64,000 bases of DNA from an uncultured archaeon (GCA_964347045.1 CAYFXC010000003.1:38701-102700), one strand, 5' to 3'. Shown: positions 45,553 through 55,062, counted from the stretch's first letter. Made by a program: numbers and translations. Notes: generated from the sequence alone by a model not told the origin.

Positions 45553-46086
45553 ATGAGTGGTGTTCAAAATTCTCGACTTGAAACGCTTCTCCTCATGGGC
45601 AGTAAAGCCTTCAAAGCTCAGACTTTACCTGTTGAAATTATCACTCGTCTCAACGCGGCCCTGGATCGAAATATGAGAATCATTGTTGGTGAAGCGCCTG
45701 GTGCAAATCATGTCTTCCAAGACTATTTGGCATCACAAAACTACCGCAACGTACTCGTTGGTCATGCACGAAGCATTCGCTACAATGCAGGAAACTGGGA
45801 GACTAAACAATATGGCGACAATGTTCGTGAACGGGAAAAAGGAATGATTTCCGAATGCGATGAAGCCATCATCATCTGGGTCAACAACAGCAGCGTCATC
45901 GCCACCAACCTCGAACGCCTTAAAGAACTCGGCATACCCACCTTTCTCTACGAATATTCTCAATCAACACAAAAAGCCCAAGCAGGTATGCTCGATCCCT
46001 CTCGTACCTATGACCCTAACTACCGCCGGTACAAATACTTCAAACGAAAAAATGCAAGCAACTACGATATGCCCCTAAACGGTTAA
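45553..46086 (+). CDS. SLOG superfamily-like nucleotide-binding protein
   Basis: GS.., IIVGEAPGA....QDYL, RE..M...CD.AIIIW...S..T pattern. Confidence 0.6.
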   Translation: MSGVQNSRLETLLLMGSKAFKAQTLPVEIITRLNAALDRNMRIIVGEAPGANHVFQDYLASQNYRNVLVGHARSIRYNAGNWETKQYGDNVREREKGMISECDEAIIIWVNNSSVIATNLERLKELGIPTFLYEYSQSTQKAQAGMLDPSRTYDPNYRRYKYFKRKNASNYDMPLNG

Positions 46087-46253
46087 TACTGATTTAACTT
46101 TCGAGTATTTTCATGGCTTCGTTTGGTCAAAAACGTCTTTTCATGGTAATGTGAAAGTGTGTTGTTCCATCCCAACCAAAAGTTACTCTTTTTACCGTAA
46201 ATACAGTAAAATTTATATTTAATGGAGTAATTTCGCAAAATGGTGAAAGCCAA

Positions 46254-46952
46254 GTGAAACGTTGGCCTCGAGTAAAAACTGTTGCTATCGCCGCCTTGAT
46301 ATCATTGGCAATTTTTTCTATAACGATTCTCAATTACCCTGAACCGTTGGTCCGTCGATTATCTTGGCTGACTCATCCAGGTGCCTATGCTATCTATACA
46401 CGAGGACGGACCTACGAATTGACCAATGGGTCAATCCGTATGGACGTCATTGACGGCACACCAATTACCACATCTATCCAAGTTTCAACATGGAACGGTT
46501 CACATTGGTGCACTCCAACCATTTTCCATGATCTCCCCATCCATCATTCTACCTCTTTTTGGGTAGCCAATGATCTTCTTGTCGGTGGTAGGCTCAACAA
46601 CCTTATCATTAATCACACTTCGGAAATCCTTGAAATATGGCACGATTATGATGAAGCTGACGAAGGCAACTCCGGACAATACGTTGTAAGTGTCAAATCC
46701 GTCACCCCAGGCCTCAGCCTCTTCGTTGGACGCTTTGCCGTCGAATGCGGATTAGTTACCGGCTGGTACTACCCCGAATTCTACCGCCTATACGAAACCA
46801 ACCTATTCCTCGGCATCTACACCCTCTTTATAGGCTACCCCATCTTCGGAATACTCGTCTTAGCCCCTGTCATCCTCATGATTACCTCAATCCTTCTCAT
46901 CTACGAAGGCTTACGCTACCTCCAACACTTACCACGCAAATCCTTGAAATAA
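46254..46952 (+). CDS. Hypothetical membrane protein
   Basis: N-terminal and C-terminal hydrophobic helices around a soluble domain. Confidence 0.65.
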   Translation: MKRWPRVKTVAIAALISLAIFSITILNYPEPLVRRLSWLTHPGAYAIYTRGRTYELTNGSIRMDVIDGTPITTSIQVSTWNGSHWCTPTIFHDLPIHHSTSFWVANDLLVGGRLNNLIINHTSEILEIWHDYDEADEGNSGQYVVSVKSVTPGLSLFVGRFAVECGLVTGWYYPEFYRLYETNLFLGIYTLFIGYPIFGILVLAPVILMITSILLIYEGLRYLQHLPRKSLK

Positions 46953-47059: not shown

Positions 47060-48103
47060 ATGAAATGTCCACTCAAGGATCAAGGACTTGAACGCGGAGC
47101 CTGTCAAACCAGAACCTGTGATGGTCAGTCACAGCCTGCCTGTCAGGTAACCCTTCGAAAAAACAAAAACGGAATGTTCGAACGACTTATACGATCTATG
47201 CATCTCAGTCGACCGGAAGACTACTTTTCCGTATACCAGAGTGGATGCAATCACACGTGTTTGAAATGTCATTCGGCGGAGTTCAGTAAAACAGCAAATG
47301 GCGAATGGATTTCCACACATGAATTAGCCCTCATTTCAAAAGACTATCGTCAAGAAGTAACTGTTTGGGAACCTCGAGAACGGGCAACCATGTGGCACGC
47401 AGGAACCCTTTGTAAGCATTGTGGATCCTGTCGACTCACCGGTCTTCACTCACCCCAATGCCCACAGACACTAGACCCAACGCAAATTACCCGATCTGTC
47501 CAAGGCTATGGTCCTGCACGCAATATCATCGCCTTTACTGGGGGCGACTTAGGTTGTCACCCTGAGTATTACGCTGAAGCAGCCCACGCCATCAAAACCG
47601 CTGCAGGAAACAATATGTGGGTGCTCTTCGAAACTAATGGGTATGCCTTAACACAACCGAATCTACAAATTCTCAAGGACGGTGGTGTCGATGCCTTCTG
47701 GCTCGACATCAAAGCCCACAATCCCAAGATATACAAAAAACTCTGCGGCACCTCCAATAAAACAGTCTTAGACTCCATATCGTTGAGCCATGATGCAGGG
47801 TTTGTGCTTGAAATCCTCACCCTCTACATCCCCGGATGGGTGGAAACCGACCAACACACCGCCATTGCCCAACTCATCGCTGAAACTGACCCCACCATTC
47901 CTACAACACTCCTCGCCTTCTTTCCAACCTACCACCTTTCCCACGAAAAACCTCCTTCTCTTCAAGAAATAGTCCAAAGTGCCCAAGCCATGCAACAACA
48001 AGGCCTAACCAACCTACGTCTAGGCAACATCGGCGTTTTTGTCAAAACCCAGTACGACTACGAATTTCTCACCACAAACTTGACAGACATATCCATCGGG
48101 TGA
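47060..48103 (+). CDS. Radical SAM protein (PFL-activating-enzyme-like)
   Basis: GCNHTCLKCH, FTGGD, ETNG, WLDIKA; extra Cys clusters. Confidence 0.88.
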   Translation: MKCPLKDQGLERGACQTRTCDGQSQPACQVTLRKNKNGMFERLIRSMHLSRPEDYFSVYQSGCNHTCLKCHSAEFSKTANGEWISTHELALISKDYRQEVTVWEPRERATMWHAGTLCKHCGSCRLTGLHSPQCPQTLDPTQITRSVQGYGPARNIIAFTGGDLGCHPEYYAEAAHAIKTAAGNNMWVLFETNGYALTQPNLQILKDGGVDAFWLDIKAHNPKIYKKLCGTSNKTVLDSISLSHDAGFVLEILTLYIPGWVETDQHTAIAQLIAETDPTIPTTLLAFFPTYHLSHEKPPSLQEIVQSAQAMQQQGLTNLRLGNIGVFVKTQYDYEFLTTNLTDISIG

Positions 48104-48169: not shown

Positions 48170-48279
48170 CTACCGACCCCAAGCTTTTCCTCTTTCAACT
48201 CTTCACGATTCTGCTCCTGAATCCACGTCCATGGCTTCTTCTCCTCCAATCCATAAAAATACCCAAAGATAATTCCGTT
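48170..48279 (-). pseudogene. Decayed duplicate of the hydrogenase large-subunit 3' tail
   Basis: Translates NGIIFGYFYGLEEKKPWTWIQEQNREE-(1-nt deletion)-ERGKAWGR-stop versus DRIILSYPDGKQEEKPWAWFQEKSREERNRIKAWRR-stop at 53857-53967; 19/36 identical by hand. Confidence 0.85.
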
Positions 48280-48397
48280 CAAACTGAACACGTAGCCTAA
48301 TTAGCCATCACCATAAACACCCCCATTTTTCTGCCATAACATTTAACAACTGATGCTAATCTGAAACATCATCATCACAGATTATTAGGGTAAGTCC

Positions 48398-49669
48398 ATG
48401 GTTCACCAAATCTTCAGACGGAATCTCGATAAATGCTGGAATTGTGGGTTTTGTACTGAAACGGTAGATTGTCCGAGTCCCCAAGTATGTATTGGATGCC
48501 AAGCATGCTACTTGGCATGCTATAGAGAAGCTATCGAACCAATTGAACAAACATTGGACAATGAAATTACAATTATGCTGGATGAAAAGCCTGTTACTGT
48601 ACCAAGCCAAGTCACTATTAAAACGGCTCTTGAAACGCTGGGCATCCGATTTTCCCGGTTTCCTGATTCACACGACCTATTTACCCCTTGCCAGACTGGT
48701 GGGTGTTATTCCTGTTTAGTTTCCGTTGATGGTGAAATTCTTCCCTGCTGTCACACACCAGTAAAATCGGGTCAACACATTCGAACAAAGATAGCCGACG
48801 ATTTCGTACCCCGCAGAATTGTTGGATGGTATAGCCCTCACCCAGTTGGCGGGGTTGGAACTCCGTGGAGTGCGAAAAATCTTGGCAGAACCCGGCACTC
48901 ATACATTGAAGTAGCTTGTTTCAGCGCAGGGTGCAACCTTAGATGTAAAACTTGTCAGAACTTTGATACAACCTATAATAGTCGTGCACCAGCCGTCACG
49001 CCCAATGAAGCTGCCGAAATCCTAACGAAACTTCGTCAGAAATCCCATGTCAACCGTCTTGCTATTTCGGGTGGTGAACCGACCCTCAACCGAAAGTGGC
49101 TGATCGAGTTTTTCAAGGAACTCAATCATCTCAACCCAGACCCGAAAGCCCGGTTGCATTTGGACACTAATGCCTCAATTCTGACTCCCGATTACATTGA
49201 TGAACTAATATTGGCAGGTATAACTGACATTGGACCTGATCTGAAAGCCGTTCAGGTTGCTACTTACCAAACAATCACAAATATTTCCGACCCTAATCTA
49301 GCCCAAAAATATCTGGATACATCTTGGGCCGCTGTCAAACATCTGGCCAATCATTATTATCCAAATCAAATCTTCATGGGTGTTGGATTACCTTACAACG
49401 CGGCATTCTTTCCCTCTCAACAACAGAAAGAAACCGAACTTCACCAATGGGGAACCCGACTACATGCCATTGATGATCGAATCCAAGTTTGCATTCTCGA
49501 TTACCGTCCAACCTTCCGACGCCGAGATATCCACCGTCCAACAATTGAAGAAATACGAGCTGTCAAGAAGTTACTCGAAGGAGTAGGACTCCAAACAGTC
49601 ATCGCCCAAACACAACTCGGTCACCTACCTCCCAAACAACCAGCGCCTGATCGTACACTGCCTCGATAG
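48398..49669 (+). CDS. Radical SAM protein with N-terminal 4Fe-4S and 2Fe-2S-like domains
   Basis: CWNCGFC, CIGCQACYLAC, CQTGGCYSC, GCNLRCKTC, SGGEP, DTN. Confidence 0.88.
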   Translation: MVHQIFRRNLDKCWNCGFCTETVDCPSPQVCIGCQACYLACYREAIEPIEQTLDNEITIMLDEKPVTVPSQVTIKTALETLGIRFSRFPDSHDLFTPCQTGGCYSCLVSVDGEILPCCHTPVKSGQHIRTKIADDFVPRRIVGWYSPHPVGGVGTPWSAKNLGRTRHSYIEVACFSAGCNLRCKTCQNFDTTYNSRAPAVTPNEAAEILTKLRQKSHVNRLAISGGEPTLNRKWLIEFFKELNHLNPDPKARLHLDTNASILTPDYIDELILAGITDIGPDLKAVQVATYQTITNISDPNLAQKYLDTSWAAVKHLANHYYPNQIFMGVGLPYNAAFFPSQQQKETELHQWGTRLHAIDDRIQVCILDYRPTFRRRDIHRPTIEEIRAVKKLLEGVGLQTVIAQTQLGHLPPKQPAPDRTLPR

Positions 49670-49782
49670 GGGCGTTCGAACTCACTGATGCATTCTAGCG
49701 AGATGAATGAAATCAGAGGCGCAGATAGACCTCTACCTTTCCAACCATTTAATTAGCTTTTTAGATAAAAGCGAAAAAAGAA

Positions 49783-50184
49783 CTACTCCTCTTTATCAAA
49801 ATTGAGGGAGACCGAATTAATACAATAGCGTAACCCCGTCTTTTCTCTCGGGCCATCATCAAACACATGTCCAAGATGCCCCCCACAATTCTTACATAGG
49901 ACTTCTATTCGTCGCATACCATGCGAAAGATCGAGTTTCTCTTCAATTTTGTCTTTATCCAAGGCCTCATAGAAGCTCGGCCAACCACAACGCGAATCAA
50001 ATTTGGCTTCCGATGAAAAGAGTTCCACACCACACCCCGCACACTTGTAAGTACCCTTCTCTTTATAGTTCCAATACACACCACTAAAAGGTCGTTCTGT
50101 GCCCTTCTCGCGCAATACCCGATACTCTTCTTTTGATAATTTCCTCTTCCACTCTTCTTCGGATAACTCTCTTGCCTTCTTCAT
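49783..50184 (-). CDS. msrB: Peptide methionine-R-sulfoxide reductase
   Basis: GTERPF, CxxC twice, GWPSF, HLGHVFDDGP, RYCINS. Confidence 0.96.
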   Translation of the reverse strand: MKKARELSEEEWKRKLSKEEYRVLREKGTERPFSGVYWNYKEKGTYKCAGCGVELFSSEAKFDSRCGWPSFYEALDKDKIEEKLDLSHGMRRIEVLCKNCGGHLGHVFDDGPREKTGLRYCINSVSLNFDKEE

Positions 50185-50649: not shown

Positions 50650-51606
50650 CTAGGAGAGTTTGGTTTGACGTAGTTTTGTTGAAGGTGTTTCACTCAGTTC
50701 CTCTTCATTCATGAGATTGCTGATAGAAAGGTTGATGTCATCTACCGCGGTGCGATTGAAGGTGACTAGGCCGGCTTCCCAGGATTGTCCTCCGGTTGAT
50801 GTTGGGATGAAATTCATTGATGTGATGAGTGCGATACGTCGATCGATAAGGATAATTTTTGCATGAACCCTGTCATTCTTAATCAAATTTACTCCTGCCT
50901 TCTGGAGCCGGTTATGGCATTTCATTTTTGCAGTCTTATAAACCTCGACTCGGTCAAGTTCTGGTGGACGAGTGATAAGAGTCACGTTTTTACCCTTCTG
51001 GGCTGAAAAACGGATTGTATCACTGAGATCACAATCTTGGACAAAAGGATTTACAACAATAACTTCTGTTTTCGCTAAGTCAATGAGATTTTTAGATAGC
51101 TGATCCAGCTTCGACCCTGTCAGGTAAAAATGCTCTGCGTTCATATCGAATTGAAGTTTTAAAAGATGAATCCACTTCTTGATCCAAGCAATGAGCTCGT
51201 CTTGTTGTTCCTCCTTGAAAATGCCTTGAACAGGTTTCTCAATTTCTTCTTGCGGTTCTTCTTCTAATGGTTGAGTATGTATCTTCAAGAATTGTTGATA
51301 TTCCCTATTAAGCTCAGCGCGAAGTGTGTAGGTCTCATTGGGTTGCTTTGTAATCTCTTTGGCATCAGACAGCTCTTGCAGGACATCATTAAGGGTTTGA
51401 CGTGAGAGGCCTGTAATATCGCGAATTGTTCCCCAGGGAAGCGGACCATATTCCGCAAGAACTCTAATCACCCATCCCTTCCACGTGCCCCAATAGGTTG
51501 GTTTTTCTCCCTCGTGGCTTTTTCCCAGTATGTTTCGCCAGTCCGCAATGATTTTTTCTTTAATCTTCTTCGCGCCTTCAACAATTTGCTTACGTGGACC
51601 CACCAT
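50650..51606 (-). CDS. Winged-helix plus single PLD/HKD nuclease-like domain protein
   Basis: HTH WGTIRDITGLSRQTLNDVLQEL; VHAKIILID....ITSMN...EAG. Confidence 0.8.
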   Translation of the reverse strand: MVGPRKQIVEGAKKIKEKIIADWRNILGKSHEGEKPTYWGTWKGWVIRVLAEYGPLPWGTIRDITGLSRQTLNDVLQELSDAKEITKQPNETYTLRAELNREYQQFLKIHTQPLEEEPQEEIEKPVQGIFKEEQQDELIAWIKKWIHLLKLQFDMNAEHFYLTGSKLDQLSKNLIDLAKTEVIVVNPFVQDCDLSDTIRFSAQKGKNVTLITRPPELDRVEVYKTAKMKCHNRLQKAGVNLIKNDRVHAKIILIDRRIALITSMNFIPTSTGGQSWEAGLVTFNRTAVDDINLSISNLMNEEELSETPSTKLRQTKLS

Positions 51607-51822
51607 ATTCCACACACCTCACATCTAGTACTTTTCTCAACGAAAATACTATAAGAAACTGCTTACAGCCACTTCACACTCTACTGGTAGTTGAAAAATC
51701 ATTAGCTCCTCTCCTTTTTTCGATAAAAGTGTGTTAATGCTCCTCTAATTCTGGAAAACCAGCCGTAACGCATATAAAATAGTCAAAATACGCGCACCAC
51801 TCGCACTCCTCTCATCCGAATT

Positions 51823-51859: not shown

Positions 51860-53830
51860 ATGACCGATTCCCAAAATCAACCTCAACATGCTCCGCATCC
51901 CCCAACTTCTTTTCTTCCCCGTTCTACACACAGCCCCGAAGCTCAACACCTTCTCAATATCTATGGATTCACCGCTTGGAATACTCTCGAACGCGACCTC
52001 AACCGCCACCCCTATCTTAGACACCGCACTACCTTCCCCCTAGCCTACACACACGCCCTCTGGCACCGTATCCTCACTGCTGCTCGTAATGACGGACACC
52101 TCACCGACACCACCTACAAATCCCTCGAAACTATCACCGGCATCCCCGCTGGACGACTCCGCGACTGGCGTCTCGGCGAAAAAGAACCCCACCTCGAACG
52201 CACTCTCCAAATCCACGAAACCGCCCGACAATACTGGGAACACACCCTCCCCCAAGAAGCCAAACAACACCTCATTGATCCCTCCCTTGTCTACACCACC
52301 TTCCACCCCCTCCTTGACCACACCGAAACACATACTCTCGAAGCCCCTACCACCGGCATCAAAACCCTCTATCACCACAACAAAAACCAACGCCTCATAA
52401 TCGCCGAACTCAAACCCTACCACAAAACCGGACCCCAACAACTCCGCACCATCGCCCACGCAATCATTGAACATCGATCTGAACTCGAACACAAACTCAC
52501 CAAACGGCTAAATCTCCCCAACACCCACGAAGAACTCCGGATCGCCGTCGACCACGGCACCCTCTACCTCTGGCGCAAAACCACCCACCCCGACCACTGG
52601 CTCAACACCTATAGAAACGAACTCCTCTACCTTACACCCAAAATCAAAGAAGACCTCATCAACAAGGCACGACGCCACCTCAACGTCAATACCCAACAAC
52701 TCGGACAACTCCTCGCCCAACTCACCGACCACAAAGGTGAACGAAGCCACACTCCACGAGCCGCACCCTACGAACTCACACACTTCAGTCCCAGTCTCCA
52801 CGGCAACACCCTCCACCTTCTCCTCGACGCAGCCGACCAAACGGTCGATGCAATCAAACCGTATATTACCCAAATCGGACGCATCGCCAACCACGAAAAA
52901 GGTGGAGGTATCCAAAATCCACGTTTCCCCCAAGGCAGAGAACTCGACATATTACGCGCACGTCTTCTTGCTATCGGACTCAGCGATTGTCATATCCACA
53001 AAGACACTCGTGTAATGTCTTATCATGAAAACGATCTAAATCGCATTAGGTATGTGACTAGTTTATTCCGAAGACTAGGGGATTGTACTTACAAACTTGA
53101 ATTCCTCCGGGGAAATCGCACCCGTCTAACCATAACTGCTCCTGTGGGACGGCTTCTCGAATATTGGGGCGTCCCACGCGGCGATAAGCATCTTTACCCT
53201 AATGCTAGATTACCCGAAGTGGTTCGTTTGGGGAAACCCAAAGTGAAGCAAGCCTACCTCGCTGAAGTAATCCCCGAAGATGGATTTTTTGTCAATCGCG
53301 CAGGTGCTTACAAATTTGGGATTAAACGAGCCCAAATTCTCGACGCCGGTTTAAAATCAAAAATTTATGGCTATCCTACAAAAATTACTCCGAAACATAC
53401 AGGTTTGATTAAAAAATATGGAGTAAAGCGAAAACAAGCAATACGGGACAATAGACCACGAAACGAAATAACATTGACAAAAGGGAGGTTAAAAGAATTA
53501 ATCAGAAAAGGAGAAACGCAAAAAGATCAACACATAGCTCAACAATTGGAAGTAATAATCAAGACAAATCCTTCTCAGTTACTTAAAGACGAAAAGGAGC
53601 TGGCAGAAAGCTTAGGGATCAAGATGCAAATGATTTTCAAAGAACTTAAACTCCAAGAATCTGGGCGAGTCTCTACCCTCTGGGAAATCTATACCAAATC
53701 CTCAACAGACACTCTTCAATGGGCAACCCTTGCAGAACCAAGCTCTGGAGAAAAACAGAGTGCAGTGAGAGATTGGATTATCAAATACCAAGGAAAGAAT
53801 TCTATAGATTCTACTAAGGCGGAGCTATAG
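51860..53830 (+). CDS. Free-standing HTH plus two-motif LAGLIDADG endonuclease-like protein
   Basis: HTH YKSLETITGIPAGRLRDWR; motif 1 LLAIGLSDCHI (~52964); WGVPRGDK...RLPEVV linker; motif 2 AYLAEVIPEDGFF (~53252). Confidence 0.72.
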   Translation: MTDSQNQPQHAPHPPTSFLPRSTHSPEAQHLLNIYGFTAWNTLERDLNRHPYLRHRTTFPLAYTHALWHRILTAARNDGHLTDTTYKSLETITGIPAGRLRDWRLGEKEPHLERTLQIHETARQYWEHTLPQEAKQHLIDPSLVYTTFHPLLDHTETHTLEAPTTGIKTLYHHNKNQRLIIAELKPYHKTGPQQLRTIAHAIIEHRSELEHKLTKRLNLPNTHEELRIAVDHGTLYLWRKTTHPDHWLNTYRNELLYLTPKIKEDLINKARRHLNVNTQQLGQLLAQLTDHKGERSHTPRAAPYELTHFSPSLHGNTLHLLLDAADQTVDAIKPYITQIGRIANHEKGGGIQNPRFPQGRELDILRARLLAIGLSDCHIHKDTRVMSYHENDLNRIRYVTSLFRRLGDCTYKLEFLRGNRTRLTITAPVGRLLEYWGVPRGDKHLYPNARLPEVVRLGKPKVKQAYLAEVIPEDGFFVNRAGAYKFGIKRAQILDAGLKSKIYGYPTKITPKHTGLIKKYGVKRKQAIRDNRPRNEITLTKGRLKELIRKGETQKDQHIAQQLEVIIKTNPSQLLKDEKELAESLGIKMQMIFKELKLQESGRVSTLWEIYTKSSTDTLQWATLAEPSSGEKQSAVRDWIIKYQGKNSIDSTKAEL

Positions 53831-53856
53831 AAAATGCTGAGAGGCAATCAAGGCAA

Positions 53857-55062
53857 TTAACGGCGCCAAGCTTTGATTCGGTTCCGTTCTTCTCGACTCT
53901 TCTCTTGGAACCATGCCCAGGGCTTCTCTTCTTGCTTCCCATCGGGGTATGAAAGTATAATTCGGTCAGTGCAGGAGAAGCAGGGGTCTATCGAAGCCAG
54001 GGCGATGGGGATGTCGGCGATTTTGCCGCCTTTGAGCATTTCGATGACGCTGGGGATGTTGGCGTAGGTGGGGGCGCGGGCTTTGTGGCGTTCGGGTTTG
54101 TCGGTGCCGTTGCTGACGACGTAGTGGAGGACTTCGCCGCGGGGGGCTTCGAAGGTGCTGAGGGCGTGGCCGGGTGGGATGCGGCGGGGGGTGCGGGTGC
54201 TGATGTCGCCTGTGGGGAGGGTGGTGAGCCAGTGGGTGACGGTGGTGCAGGCGTCGAGGGTTTCGAGCATGCGGACGACGACGCGGCCGGCGACGTCGCA
54301 CATGTCGGAGGTGCGGACTTCCCAGGTGGTGCCGAGGGTTTCTTGGTAGGGGGTGCGGGGTTGGGTGGCGCGGACGTCCCAGTCGATGTTGGAGGCGCGG
54401 GCGGTGGGTCCGGTGGCGCAGAGGGCTTTGCCGACGTCGGTTTTGAGGATGCCGACGCCGATGGCGCGGTCGAGGATCGTTTGTTCGGCTAACACGAGTT
54501 TGATGTAGTGGTTGACGCGGTCTTTGATTTTTTCCAGGCGGTCTACCATGCTGGGGATTTGGCTTTTCTCGATGTCGTGGCGGACGCCGCCGATGATGTT
54601 GTTGGCGTAGTTGACGCGGTTCCCACAGATTTCTTCGATCATGTCCATGCTTAATTCGCGGTCCCGCCAGGAATAATGGAACAGGGTATCCCAGCCGATT
54701 TCGTGGCCGGCTATGCCGAGCCAGAGGATGTGGCTGTGGATGCGGTTGAGCTCGTTCATGATGGCACGAATGTACAAACCCCGTTTGGGAACATCCAAGT
54801 CCAGAATCTCTTCGACGGCTTGAACATATGTTGTGGTGTGGGCTTGAGAGCAAATCCCGCAAATGCGTTCGGCGAGGTAAATGTTTTGGCTAAAACTTCG
54901 ACTTTCAAAGGCTTTTTCGATGCCGCGATGGACATAGCCGATTCGCGCTTCGACGTCGACAACAATTTCTCCGTCGACGGTGATGGTGAAGTTTTCCGGC
55001 TCCTTGAGTGCGGGGTGTTGGGGACCGATGGGGATGGTCATCGTTGTGGGTGGTTTAGCCAT
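53857..55062 (-). CDS. Group 4 [NiFe]-hydrogenase large subunit (HycE/EchE/MbhL-like)
   Basis: GPQHP, HRGIEK, L1 ERICGICS.AH, EAPRGE, L2 DPCFSCTDR plus 34-aa C-terminal extension. Confidence 0.94.
   Translation of the reverse strand: MAKPPTTMTIPIGPQHPALKEPENFTITVDGEIVVDVEARIGYVHRGIEKAFESRSFSQNIYLAERICGICSQAHTTTYVQAVEEILDLDVPKRGLYIRAIMNELNRIHSHILWLGIAGHEIGWDTLFHYSWRDRELSMDMIEEICGNRVNYANNIIGGVRHDIEKSQIPSMVDRLEKIKDRVNHYIKLVLAEQTILDRAIGVGILKTDVGKALCATGPTARASNIDWDVRATQPRTPYQETLGTTWEVRTSDMCDVAGRVVVRMLETLDACTTVTHWLTTLPTGDISTRTPRRIPPGHALSTFEAPRGEVLHYVVSNGTDKPERHKARAPTYANIPSVIEMLKGGKIADIPIALASIDPCFSCTDRIILSYPDGKQEEKPWAWFQEKSREERNRIKAWRR

Follow-up and report, generated by a model that had tools for sequence, protein, structure and literature searches.

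Among the closest described systems are the WHO elements at the FBA1 gene of Torulaspora and Lachancea yeasts (Coughlan et al. 2020, PMC7282813). According to the portions of that account considered here, a homing-endonuclease gene closely follows a conserved host gene, for which it supplies a replacement 3' end; cast-off tails accumulate downstream, and the evolution of the host gene is discordant between its 5' and 3' parts. Strand skew is not mentioned in these portions. A mirror-image strand asymmetry extending 1–2 kb to each side has been described for human meiotic double-strand-break hot spots, where the excerpts of the study used here ascribe it to resection and gap-filling steps at programmed, site-specific breaks (Hinch et al. 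2023, PMC7615360). Co-conversion tracts, for example those of the angiosperm cox1 intron (PMC3192709, as excerpted for this comparison), are anchored at the insertion site, vary in length, and can outlive the element. GC-biased gene conversion is a fixation bias on heteroduplex mismatches that raises the GC content locally and can carry mildly harmful amino-acid changes to fixation. Finally, at oriC the top strand switches from C/A-rich on the left to G/T-rich on the right.

Here, we compare these systems with a locus in the metagenome-assembled genome (MAG) of an Asgard archaeon (83 contigs, 2.58 Mb). The analyzed window is a stretch of 64,000 nucleotides, and coordinates refer to it unless another contig is named. 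An earlier note, made from this sequence alone, had described a sharp inversion of strand composition around a putative insertion site and had attributed it to C>T and A>G deamination of repeatedly exposed single-stranded DNA.

Anatomy and composition of the hydrogenase locus

The host gene (53857..55062, minus strand) encodes a group-4-type [NiFe] hydrogenase large subunit of 401 aa, recognized by Pfam matches (Complex1_49kDa, 1.5e-56; NiFeSe_Hases, 2e-18), and its orthologs within the genus are 81–87% identical. Convergent to it is a 656-aa ORF (51860..53830, plus strand), the mobile element, which leaves a 26-bp gap to the hydrogenase stop codon and combines an N-part of no known family with a C-part that probably is a LAGLIDADG endonuclease, as judged from motifs and from weak profile and fold matches. 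Two LAGLIDADG-like motifs (LLAIGLSDC and AYLAEVIPEDG) are invariant in six orthologs, and the LAGLIDADG_3 profile weakly matched four of these six (best E 0.035). Pfam searches with the whole ORF or its N-part yielded no family at E ≤ 0.01, and a profile of the six orthologs matched no LAGLIDADG chain among the PDB sequences. The AF2 model (mean pLDDT 62) has an order of secondary-structure elements that fits the alpha-beta-beta-alpha-beta-beta-alpha half-domain. The top Foldseek rows were almost all LAGLIDADG enzymes, with I-Tsp061I and I-OnuI, at weak E-values of 0.015–0.3, and the VIA fold comparison gave Z-scores of 5.8 for I-DmoI and 5.4 for PI-SceI, both for the first half-domain only. 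A search of the genome with the core alignment returned only the gene itself.

The locus is built from a swappable core between two arms. The left arm (51980..52950, plus strand) is a C/A-rich tract that equals the N-part of the ORF and is saturated over approximately codons 41–350, and the right arm (54001..54760, minus strand) comprises the body of the hydrogenase gene through codon 354 and is rich in G/T on the plus strand and in C/A on the sense strand of this gene. The core consists of the C-terminal portion of the ORF with its LAGLIDADG region, together with the 26-bp spacer (52951..53856, plus strand), and of the live tail (53857..54000, minus strand), an element-borne replacement for the 3' end of the hydrogenase gene comprising codons 355–401 and the stop codon. 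The live tail begins with LASIDPCFSCTDR and holds the L2 nickel motif and a C-terminal extension. The arms are common to the alleles, whereas the cores exist as several very divergent variants.

The base counts reported in the earlier note were exact (29 C and 3 G in 52261–52320; 34 G, 10 C and 5 A in 54181–54240). The GC content is 0.54 at a GC skew of −0.51 and an AT skew of +0.31 in 51860–52950, 0.42 at a GC skew of 0.00 in 52951–53979, and 0.63 at a GC skew of +0.32 and an AT skew of −0.30 in 53980–54760. Genome-wide, a skew ≤ −0.5 is found in 0.1% and a skew ≥ +0.4 in 0.29% of the 300-bp windows. At third codon positions, C or A occupies 260 of the 310 sites in ORF codons 41–350 (P = 7e−34), with the bias beginning to climb at codon 30, and 200 of the 214 sites in hydrogenase codons 141–354 (170 C, 30 A, 13 G and 1 T; binomial P = 5e−42 against the genome value of 0.51), with a weaker bias from codon 141 back to approximately codon 100. 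Over the 155 hydrogenase codons from 200 to 354 every degenerate third position is C or A, and the only codons with another ending are three ATG and three TGG, which lack synonyms. The live tail has C or A at 27 of 47 third positions. With a C/A third-position bias of 0.80, the hydrogenase gene ranks second among 1364 long ORFs (mean 0.502, SD 0.053). The tract boundaries proposed in the earlier note were confirmed on both sides: the left tract fades at ~52910–52950, at LAGLIDADG motif 1, and the right tract stops between codons 354 and 355 (54000/54001), three codons before SIDPCFSC and exactly where the duplicated tails described below begin.

The bias also alters the encoded proteins, as had been suspected. 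Pro, Thr, His, Gln, Asn and Lys together make up 40.6% of the ORF N-part versus 25.8% genome-wide, and His alone 9.4% versus 2.1%. Thr accounts for six of the 11 residues in the hydrogenase tract that are unique to this genome. The lineage-specific replacements in the tract go towards Thr, and some of the altered residues require transversions, as in the K>T, N>T and C>T codon changes.

Some 5.6 kb downstream of the end of the live gene lies a dead tail, in which the hydrogenase C-terminal codons survive as a decayed remnant copy (48199..48300, minus strand; tblastn of hydrogenase residues 336–401 against the window, E = 1e−5, 46% identity over 35 aa). Immediately left of this tail, a radical-SAM-type gene has a C/A-rich patch at its right end (47700..48100, plus strand), probably a fossil left arm, with a GC skew of −0.49 to −0.51 and a third-position C/A fraction of 0.70–0.85 in the last 130 codons. 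This gene lies on the plus strand, and positional skew is therefore confounded with the coding strand at the patch.

Skew at other loci and in related genomes

Taken alone, the hydrogenase locus does not distinguish the inversion from a coding-strand effect, as both tracts are C/A-rich on the sense strands of convergent genes, and other loci were needed to settle the matter because of this arrangement. They bear out the earlier view that the skew is positional and centered on the insertion site, and is neither a coding-strand nor an expression effect, since it inverts inside the ORF for PolD. This single ORF of the same genome (G000:C1:27294-32384) contains a LAGLIDADG intein. Its sense-strand third positions are up to 83% C and 0% G upstream of the C-terminal half of the intein, and 60–73% G and 0% A/C in the C-extein. 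The intein-less PolD allele of the congeneric genome G004 has C or A at 45 of 49 sites followed by G or T at 54 of 56, and the flip, between KRRN and CDGDED, is placed at the exact empty insertion codon. In the G012 allele, Ala replaces the +1 Cys and there is almost no skew. Type-2 inteins have no skew anywhere inside, and their flanking exteins are skewed.

Complete C/A-to-G/T pairs occur three times in the genome, at PolD, at the hydrogenase locus, and at actin with its LAGLIDADG-motif ORF, with arms of about 0.3–1 kb on each side. The 656-aa ORF is not closely paralogous to the endonuclease-type ORFs of the actin and PolD loci. Seven half-flips, likewise of about 0.3–1 kb per side, are found at contig termini, where the tracts at contig starts are all of the G/T type (4/4) and those within 500 bp of contig ends all of the C/A type (3/3); contigs break at cores, as would be the case if the sample is polymorphic for cores. 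One rule holds at the hydrogenase, PolD and actin loci, each strand reading 5'-C/A, core, G/T-3'. The strand with its 3' end towards the core has C > A >> G, T, its complement has G > T, and the core has ordinary codon usage. A simple count of gap-free flips (11 C/A-to-G/T versus 4 G/T-to-C/A) has the right direction but gives a weak signal, because cores separate the arms in most flips and cassette arrays create reverse junctions. At four-fold degenerate sites within tracts a single base makes up 87–91%, namely C or, on the opposite strand, G (hydrogenase, 112 C, 6 A, 7 G, 3 T; actin, 126 C, 8 A, 5 G, 8 T; PolD C-extein, 29 G, 3 T, no A and no C), compared with 93 A, 65 C, 47 G and 133 T in the background and a genome-like 37 A, 28 C, 18 G and 37 T in core part 1. 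Two-fold sites comprise 49 C versus 2 T for pyrimidines and 28 A versus 5 G for purines (complementary strand).

The hydrogenase tract has a common 3' anchor and a variable length in 11 relatives, and the junction recurs at the same codon, 354/355, in these separately assembled genomes. The bias was also compared with an element-free ortholog: in G002, where the hydrogenase gene is followed directly by msrB, most of the bias is absent and ~30 codons of the tract are kept. The ortholog in L012, from another genus, is C3-rich over the entire gene. Orthologs of the 656-aa ORF occupy the same position in five relatives; all of them possess the left-arm C/A tract, the boundary of which shifts by ~100 codons between species, and the core has genome-like codons in every species compared. 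Of the earlier proposal that the core is the newest arrival, the notion of a separately inherited, swappable module holds, as demonstrated by the endonuclease and PolD intein swaps. A recent arrival in this genome does not, because the core is unskewed in all five carrier relatives and its variant types are only 43–59% identical at the amino-acid level. The endonucleases of L008 and L004 share an identity of 0.84 up to a breakpoint and of 0.46 beyond it, and the PolD intein of G001 is of type 1 as far as AYAWK.G and of type 2 thereafter. The skew boundary coincides with these demonstrable module swaps. Hydrogenase identity falls past the junction, and interspecies nucleotide identity is highest beside it (0.88–1.00), which is expected because forcing every silent site to C or A produces convergence. 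The last ~40 hydrogenase codons (query residues ~355–401) recur in additional copies, up to three or four per relative, downstream of the hydrogenase gene in G001, G003, G008, G011, G012, G013 and G014. Third-position changes polarized against non-tract orthologs were 6 T>C, 2 G>C, 2 A>C, 1 G>A and 1 T>A, too few for a firm spectrum, and the count of unique derived changes is biased where most sequences already have the tract.

In its architecture, the locus resembles a WHO element: an endonuclease gene beside the 3' end of the host gene, a replacement tail, cast-off tails downstream, and discordant parts, the latter evident from the core swaps, the PolD intein and the drop in identity past the junction. 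Unlike WHO elements, it resides in an archaeal host, its ORF is convergent and free-standing without recognizable intein-splicing or zinc-finger parts, and the role of second homology arm seems to fall to the N-part of its own endonuclease gene instead of to a dead tail. As in co-conversion, the tracts are anchored at the insertion site and have variable outer ends (11 orthologs), and the skew retained by the intein-less G004 PolD allele has outlived the element. Copying of donor sequence, however, creates no strand-polar composition, whereas here a composition rule applies, by which single genes are saturated in mirror image, with C/A on one side and G/T on the other. The local rise in GC content (0.54–0.70 versus 0.43) recalls GC-biased gene conversion. 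That process is strand-symmetric, while the base favored here depends on which strand forms the 3' tail, and the GC skew reaches −0.51 and +0.32 to +0.42.

Break repair as the probable source of the skew, and alternatives

We regard the tracts as homology arms and the skew as a mark that repeated homing and break repair have left within these arms only, a reading to which we assign a probability of roughly 85%. The full saturation of degenerate sites over 155 codons was counted in its favor. The position of the break would be that of the flip. Within this reading, our preference for a bias in mismatch processing over a mutagenic step as the cause is tentative, the former being somewhat short of an even chance. 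NucS is encoded in this genome (PF01939, 113 bits), which in addition contains a MutY-family glycosylase homolog (236 bits, under the cut-off). EndoMS cleaves G/T, G/G and T/T mismatches and hardly A/C, C/C and A/A (PMC4838380), and NucS suppresses homeologous recombination (PMC8228993). The putative endonuclease would cut alleles that lack the core or carry a different one, and 5'-3' resection would leave 3' tails on the broken copy that pair with the template in the arms only. Mismatches recognized by NucS/EndoMS (G/T, G/G, T/T) would then be cut, resulting in the template allele, while the ignored ones (A/C, C/C, A/A) would persist, so that the tail allele is retained half the time. A C or an A on the tail strand would thus always win. 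The outcome would be strand-specific biased gene conversion, with a sharp onset at the heterology border and a decay with heteroduplex length. A hand calculation speaks against this scheme in its simplest form: the cleavage preferences published for T. kodakarensis EndoMS, with moderate cutting of T/C and poor cutting of A/G, would by themselves give A > C at four-fold sites. Because C makes up 87% in the data, a second activity must be assumed, and a MutY-type, A/G-specific glycosylase would let C beat A at these sites. The scheme also requires that diverged alleles meet often. The wide occurrence of NucS in archaea counts against it as well, and a lineage-specific factor may be decisive.

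Other steps of homing were worked through by hand and rejected. Deamination of the recipient 3' tails and of the displaced donor strands in the D-loop both give the wrong polarity, a T/G glycosylase bias alone yields GC-richness without skew, and an escape of fill-in errors from NucS yields G/T-rich tails, again the wrong polarity. An ends-out linear donor fragment with deaminated tails has the right polarity but cannot account for the codon-sharp flip in a core-less allele.

The most serious competitor, though an improbable one, is break-repair mutagenesis, in which the resected 5' strands of both arms are re-synthesized outward by a low-fidelity polymerase and the core is copied inside the D-loop by a more accurate enzyme. 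Mis-insertion of G opposite T, of T opposite G, and of (oxidized) G opposite A would make the new strands G > T and the surviving 3' tails C > A. The polarity is right, as the G/T-rich strands have their 5' end at the core, the four-fold order G > T >> A, C is reproduced, and the proposal, as contained in the parts of Hinch et al. used here, that at human hot spots translesion polymerases fill in the resected DNA beyond the D-loop fits this mechanism (PMC7615360). According to the same parts, the resected 3' tails at human hot spots lose C and A, which here are the bases that the tails are driven to, and the human signal amounts to a moderate surplus of rare mutations, whereas here silent sites are saturated and proteins changed (PMC7615360). 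Against break-repair mutagenesis, both core strands would be new at each homing, yet the core is unshifted, so that two polymerases of very different fidelity are needed, and full saturation demands an extreme error rate per event or very many events. Decidedly less probable is the deamination model of the earlier note, with C>T and A>G changes on one repeatedly exposed strand per side, be it the lagging-strand template of a replication bubble, a strand exposed by 3'-5' resection, or, in a further variant considered here, the non-template strand of outward R-loops. A bubble or outward R-loops would expose the G/T-rich strand with the polarity seen at a bacterial origin, and the two-fold sites look like saturated transitions. 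Transitions alone would nevertheless leave four-fold sites at ~50:50 instead of 87–91% one base, and transversion-type amino-acid changes are present. We know of no basis for 3'-5' resection, and canonical 5'-3' resection with deamination of the tails results in the opposite polarity, the one given for human hot spots in the excerpts used here; the 3' tails would be predicted to be poor in C and A, which is contradicted if the break is at the flip, as the tails are then C/A-rich. A replication bubble is contradicted by three complete flips and seven contig-terminal half-flips in one genome of 2.58 Mb, where an origin would produce one or few switches at replichore instead of kilobase scale and where each flip is tied to a mobile-element site, and by the central 0.6–1 kb, which would not remain unskewed. 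The annotated genes at the locus are transcribed inward, which is at odds with outward R-loops.

Three further explanations are much weaker. Selection on the arms, in which frequently broken sites or the selfish element itself would be favored for C/A-only 3' tails that cannot self-fold and would load RadA and invade faster, agrees with the exact match between the C/A-rich strands and the predicted tails and with a saturation that looks directional. Any one silent site would bring only a minute benefit, though, the amino-acid changes fixed in a conserved hydrogenase look costly, and RecA/Rad51 proteins favor G/T-rich over C/A-rich single strands; we consider it very unlikely. Hardly better than this, and if anything slightly less probable, is plain co-conversion, i.e., the import of foreign hydrogenase and endonuclease pieces from a donor lineage with other codon usage. 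The insertion-site-anchored tracts of variable length, as known for homing introns, the identity of 0.88–1.00 beside the junction, and the C3-rich gene of L012 suit it. No donor usage, however, gives C/A only upstream and G/T only downstream in one gene, and the lineage-specific replacements towards Thr point to a process that is ongoing in each species. The PolD inversion refutes co-conversion as a sufficient cause, although it may still help to spread tracts. We give almost no credence to an effect of codon usage or expression or to an assembly chimera. The shared sense-strand C/A-richness of the hydrogenase-locus tracts, the highly expressed types among the biased genes (actin, hydrogenases, S19), and the fragmentation of the MAG would be in keeping with these. 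Inversion inside single ORFs, sharp mid-gene boundaries, the junction shared by 11 separately assembled relatives, and joins that are all in frame argue against them; the PolD and G004 data refute them all.

Implications for homing sites and archaeal genes

No description of strand skew at homing sites was found in the literature, in a search that covered few subscription journals, and the skew has the look of a durable and so far undescribed scar left by break repair that took place again and again. If it is a repair footprint, it would offer a sequence-only finder of homing-endonuclease cut sites, including those that are empty today, and would show the true mobile unit, which here is a half-enzyme-plus-tail module and not the whole gene. 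The polarity opposite to that of human hot spots would then report on a poorly understood step of archaeal recombination or mismatch handling. It is conceivable, at somewhat worse than even odds and with less assurance than the mismatch-processing cause itself, that in archaea relying on NucS/EndoMS recurrent site-specific breaks lead to strand-specific gene conversion and permanently record, to the codon, where cleavage sites are, whether occupied or empty. The same drive would saturate silent sites and push Thr, His and Pro into hydrogenase, actin and PolD. Selfish elements would thereby reshape the coding sequence of essential genes over ~1 kb around their sites, with consequences for phylogenies and codon-usage analyses of Asgard markers such as actin, PolD, MCM and hydrogenases.

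Strand composition at the hydrogenase locus

Two oppositely skewed tracts flank an unskewed stretch at the 3' end of the [NiFe] hydrogenase large-subunit gene. The left tract (51860-52950; GC content 0.54, GC skew −0.51, AT skew +0.31) and the right tract (53980-54760; GC content 0.63, GC skew +0.32, AT skew −0.30) have skews within the outer 0.1-0.3% of all 300-bp windows of the source genome (2.58 Mb in 83 contigs, GC content 0.43, actin encoded). The stretch between them (52951-53979) has a GC content of 0.42 and a GC skew of 0.00. The base counts from which the earlier note had deduced this inversion were exact on recount for both stretches. In a 656-aa ORF on the + strand (51860-53830), the left tract occupies codons 1 to ~350; the right tract covers codons ~100-354 of the hydrogenase gene on the − strand (53857-55062). 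Because these genes are convergent, the sense strand of each is the C/A-rich one within its tract, and at this locus taken alone a positional effect is inseparable from a coding-strand effect.

Within the tracts, two-fold degenerate codons end in C where a pyrimidine and in A where a purine is required, and four-fold degenerate codons end in C (112 C, 6 A, 7 G and 3 T in the hydrogenase gene). Third positions of hydrogenase codons 141-354 are C or A in 200 of 214 cases (P = 5e-42); from codon 200 onward the only other endings are those of three ATG and three TGG codons, both of which lack a synonym. This run stops between codons 354 and 355 (window positions 54000/54001), three codons ahead of the motif SIDPCFSC. 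That the bias alters protein sequence, as had been proposed, was borne out: Pro, Thr, His, Gln, Asn and Lys make up 40.6% of the N-terminal part of the ORF product versus 25.8% genome-wide, and 6 of the 11 hydrogenase tract residues unique to the source genome are Thr.

The 656-aa ORF probably encodes a LAGLIDADG endonuclease, judging from two LAGLIDADG-like motifs that are invariant across six orthologs, a weak LAGLIDADG profile match, and a structure model of medium confidence that matches I-Tsp061I and I-OnuI, as well as I-DmoI and PI-SceI at Z 5-6. Family searches detected no family for its N-terminal part.

The hydrogenase tract was present in all 11 orthologous genes examined (ten from the same genus and one from a sister genus) and had its 3' end at the identical point in each, with an upstream reach varying from ~30 codons to the entire gene (locus L012). 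The shortest tract belongs to relative G002, whose hydrogenase gene lacks the putative homing element and is directly followed by msrB; the bias of this element-free ortholog, a comparison called for by the earlier note, is thus confined to ~30 codons. An ortholog of the ORF, in the same place and likewise convergent, occurs in five relatives. In every one, its N-terminal part is skewed up to a boundary that shifts by ~100 codons, and its final ~200 codons are without skew. Farther downstream, many relatives hold additional copies of the final ~40 codons of the hydrogenase gene, and the window contains one decayed copy (48199-48300), immediately to the right of a C/A-rich patch. By analogy with the WHO elements of yeasts, which replace the tail of the host gene and have tail copies downstream of it (PMC7282813), the locus behaves as a tail-replacing homing element. 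No account of strand skew at homing sites emerged from literature searches.

Skew relative to position and coding strand

A third-position scan of the whole source genome detected 58 tracts. The PolD large-subunit gene, which contains a LAGLIDADG intein and forms one ORF (contig C1, 27294-32384), is decisive. Upstream of the C-terminal half of the intein, C accounts for up to 83% of the gene's sense third positions and G for none; ~200 codons with ordinary third positions follow, and in the C-extein third positions are 60-73% G with zero A or C. The skew thus inverts inside a single ORF, which disposes of the possibility, allowed for in the earlier note, that it follows only the coding strand: it is positional. 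In the intein-less PolD gene of relative G004, third positions around KRRN|CDGDED are C/A in 45 of 49 codons before and G/T in 54 of 56 codons after the junction, and the flip coincides exactly with the empty intein insertion point. Another intein-less PolD gene (L030, contig C18 of G012) reads KRRN-ADGDED, with Ala replacing the +1 Cys required by an intein, and shows almost no skew; this allele may be unable to host the intein or may remain uncut by it.

The architecture of the hydrogenase locus recurs on contig C30, where the actin gene faces a convergent neighbor ORF with a LAGLIDADG-like motif. The polarity was constant throughout, every strand reading 5'-C/A-rich, core, G/T-rich-3'.

The unskewed core and the origin of the arms

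Four-fold degenerate sites in the cores resemble those of the genome, both in the ORF (A37 C28 G18 T37) and in the PolD intein (A37 C9 G9 T31), and the cores have never undergone hypermutation. They also vary as modules. The endonucleases of loci L008 and L004 share an identity of 0.84 in the first LAGLIDADG half and of 0.46 in the remainder, and the core of the source genome is an additional variant. Two PolD intein types occur among the source genome and its relatives (L021-L026). Type-2 inteins carry no skew anywhere, while their exteins are skewed. The intein of relative G001 is chimeric, changing from type 1 to type 2 after 'AYAWK.G', and its breakpoint is the sharp skew boundary common to five species. 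As the joint lies just ahead of LAGLIDADG motif 2, the unit exchanged is the second half-domain of the endonuclease together with the C-terminal splicing region. Together, module swaps and genome-like cores indicate that the skew is a feature of the arms, where alleles share homologous DNA, and ends at the core, where their DNA is heterologous. The earlier view of the core as the newest arrival holds insofar as the core is separately inherited; it is neither recent nor limited to the source genome, being unskewed in the orthologs of five relatives.

We consider it highly probable (roughly 0.85) that the skew is a break-repair footprint confined to the arms. Plain deamination of exposed single strands, the cause suggested originally, fits neither composition nor polarity. 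Four-fold sites consist to 87-91% of one base, whereas transitions alone predict nearly 50:50. Known systems resect 5'-3', and a break at the flip would then leave the C/A-rich strands as surviving 3' tails, while damage depletes single-stranded tails of C and A. At human hot spots, by our reading, 3' tails lose C and A, a polarity opposite to that of the skew found here (PMC7615360). The main rival explanation is error-prone outward gap filling; like any synthesis-error model, it must account for the untouched core, both strands of which are newly made at each transfer.

Confinement of the process to heteroduplex would account both for the restriction of the skew to the arms and for its onset at a precise codon. 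This heteroduplex would consist, in either arm, of the broken copy's 3' tail and a strand of template type. The source genome encodes NucS/EndoMS, an enzyme that cleaves G/T, G/G and T/T mismatches but hardly A/C, C/C or A/A (PMC4838380) and suppresses homeologous recombination (PMC8228993). If recognized mismatches were resolved to the template's allele and ignored ones segregated, C or A on the tail strand would never be lost, and G or T would be replaced whenever the partner offered C or A. Such a bias would produce the polarity seen here on either side of a site, whether occupied or empty. However, the published EndoMS preferences alone would produce more A than C at four-fold sites, contrary to the data, and an A/G-specific activity would be required; a MutY-family gene is present, with a score below the family cut-off. 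Mismatch processing is a tentative explanation, somewhat short of an even chance.

Further tracts in the window and the genome

To the left of the element, C/A patches (45880-46090, 46660-46950, 47700-48100 and 49500-49670) lie in four consecutive genes of the + strand, whose third positions rise to 80-95% C/A toward the 3', right-hand end. Neither the genome-wide tract scan nor the composition profile revealed a G/T-type patch left of the hydrogenase gene. The four patches, which are confounded with coding strand, fit serial insertion in which every cassette end was formerly a left arm. On the − strand, msrB (49783-50184) is C-rich on + (GC skew down to −0.42); its sense third-position C/A fraction of 0.38 (0.20-0.35 in codons 20-60) makes its own sense strand G/T-biased, and it may be a faint fossil of a left arm. 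A − strand gene at 50650-51615, just upstream of the endonuclease ORF, encodes a protein in which a PLD-like nuclease or phospholipase domain is fused to a MarR-type winged helix. Over the final ~60 codons of this gene the sense strand shows a C/A bias, opposite in polarity on +, and a further small flip may lie at about 50600.

In the actin cassette array (L013), tracts also occur in cargo genes (C30, 5838-6602 and 9877-10716) for an LRR protein and a DUF4332 protein with an integrase-SAM-like domain, and reverse G/T-to-C/A junctions separate successive units. The 5' part of actin is identical in contigs C24 and C30. Skewed arms lie directly at contig starts (C13, 1-660; C7, 4-303; C24, 48-287; C19, 288-437) and near contig ends (C15, 47411-47845; C41, 6267-6570; C8, 128698-128847). 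All four tracts cut by contig starts are of the G/T type, and all three within 500 bp of contig ends are of the C/A type. These breaks beside arms suggest an assembly graph split by multiple cores that occur together in the sampled population.

A second [NiFe] hydrogenase large subunit, of group-3 type (L015; C15, 46391-48007), has ~360 C/A-saturated codons that stop ~60 codons short of the gene end; the final stretch past the tract contains the second nickel motif, and the contig ends 380 bp away. Hydrogenase large subunits may be a recurrent target of tail-replacing elements.
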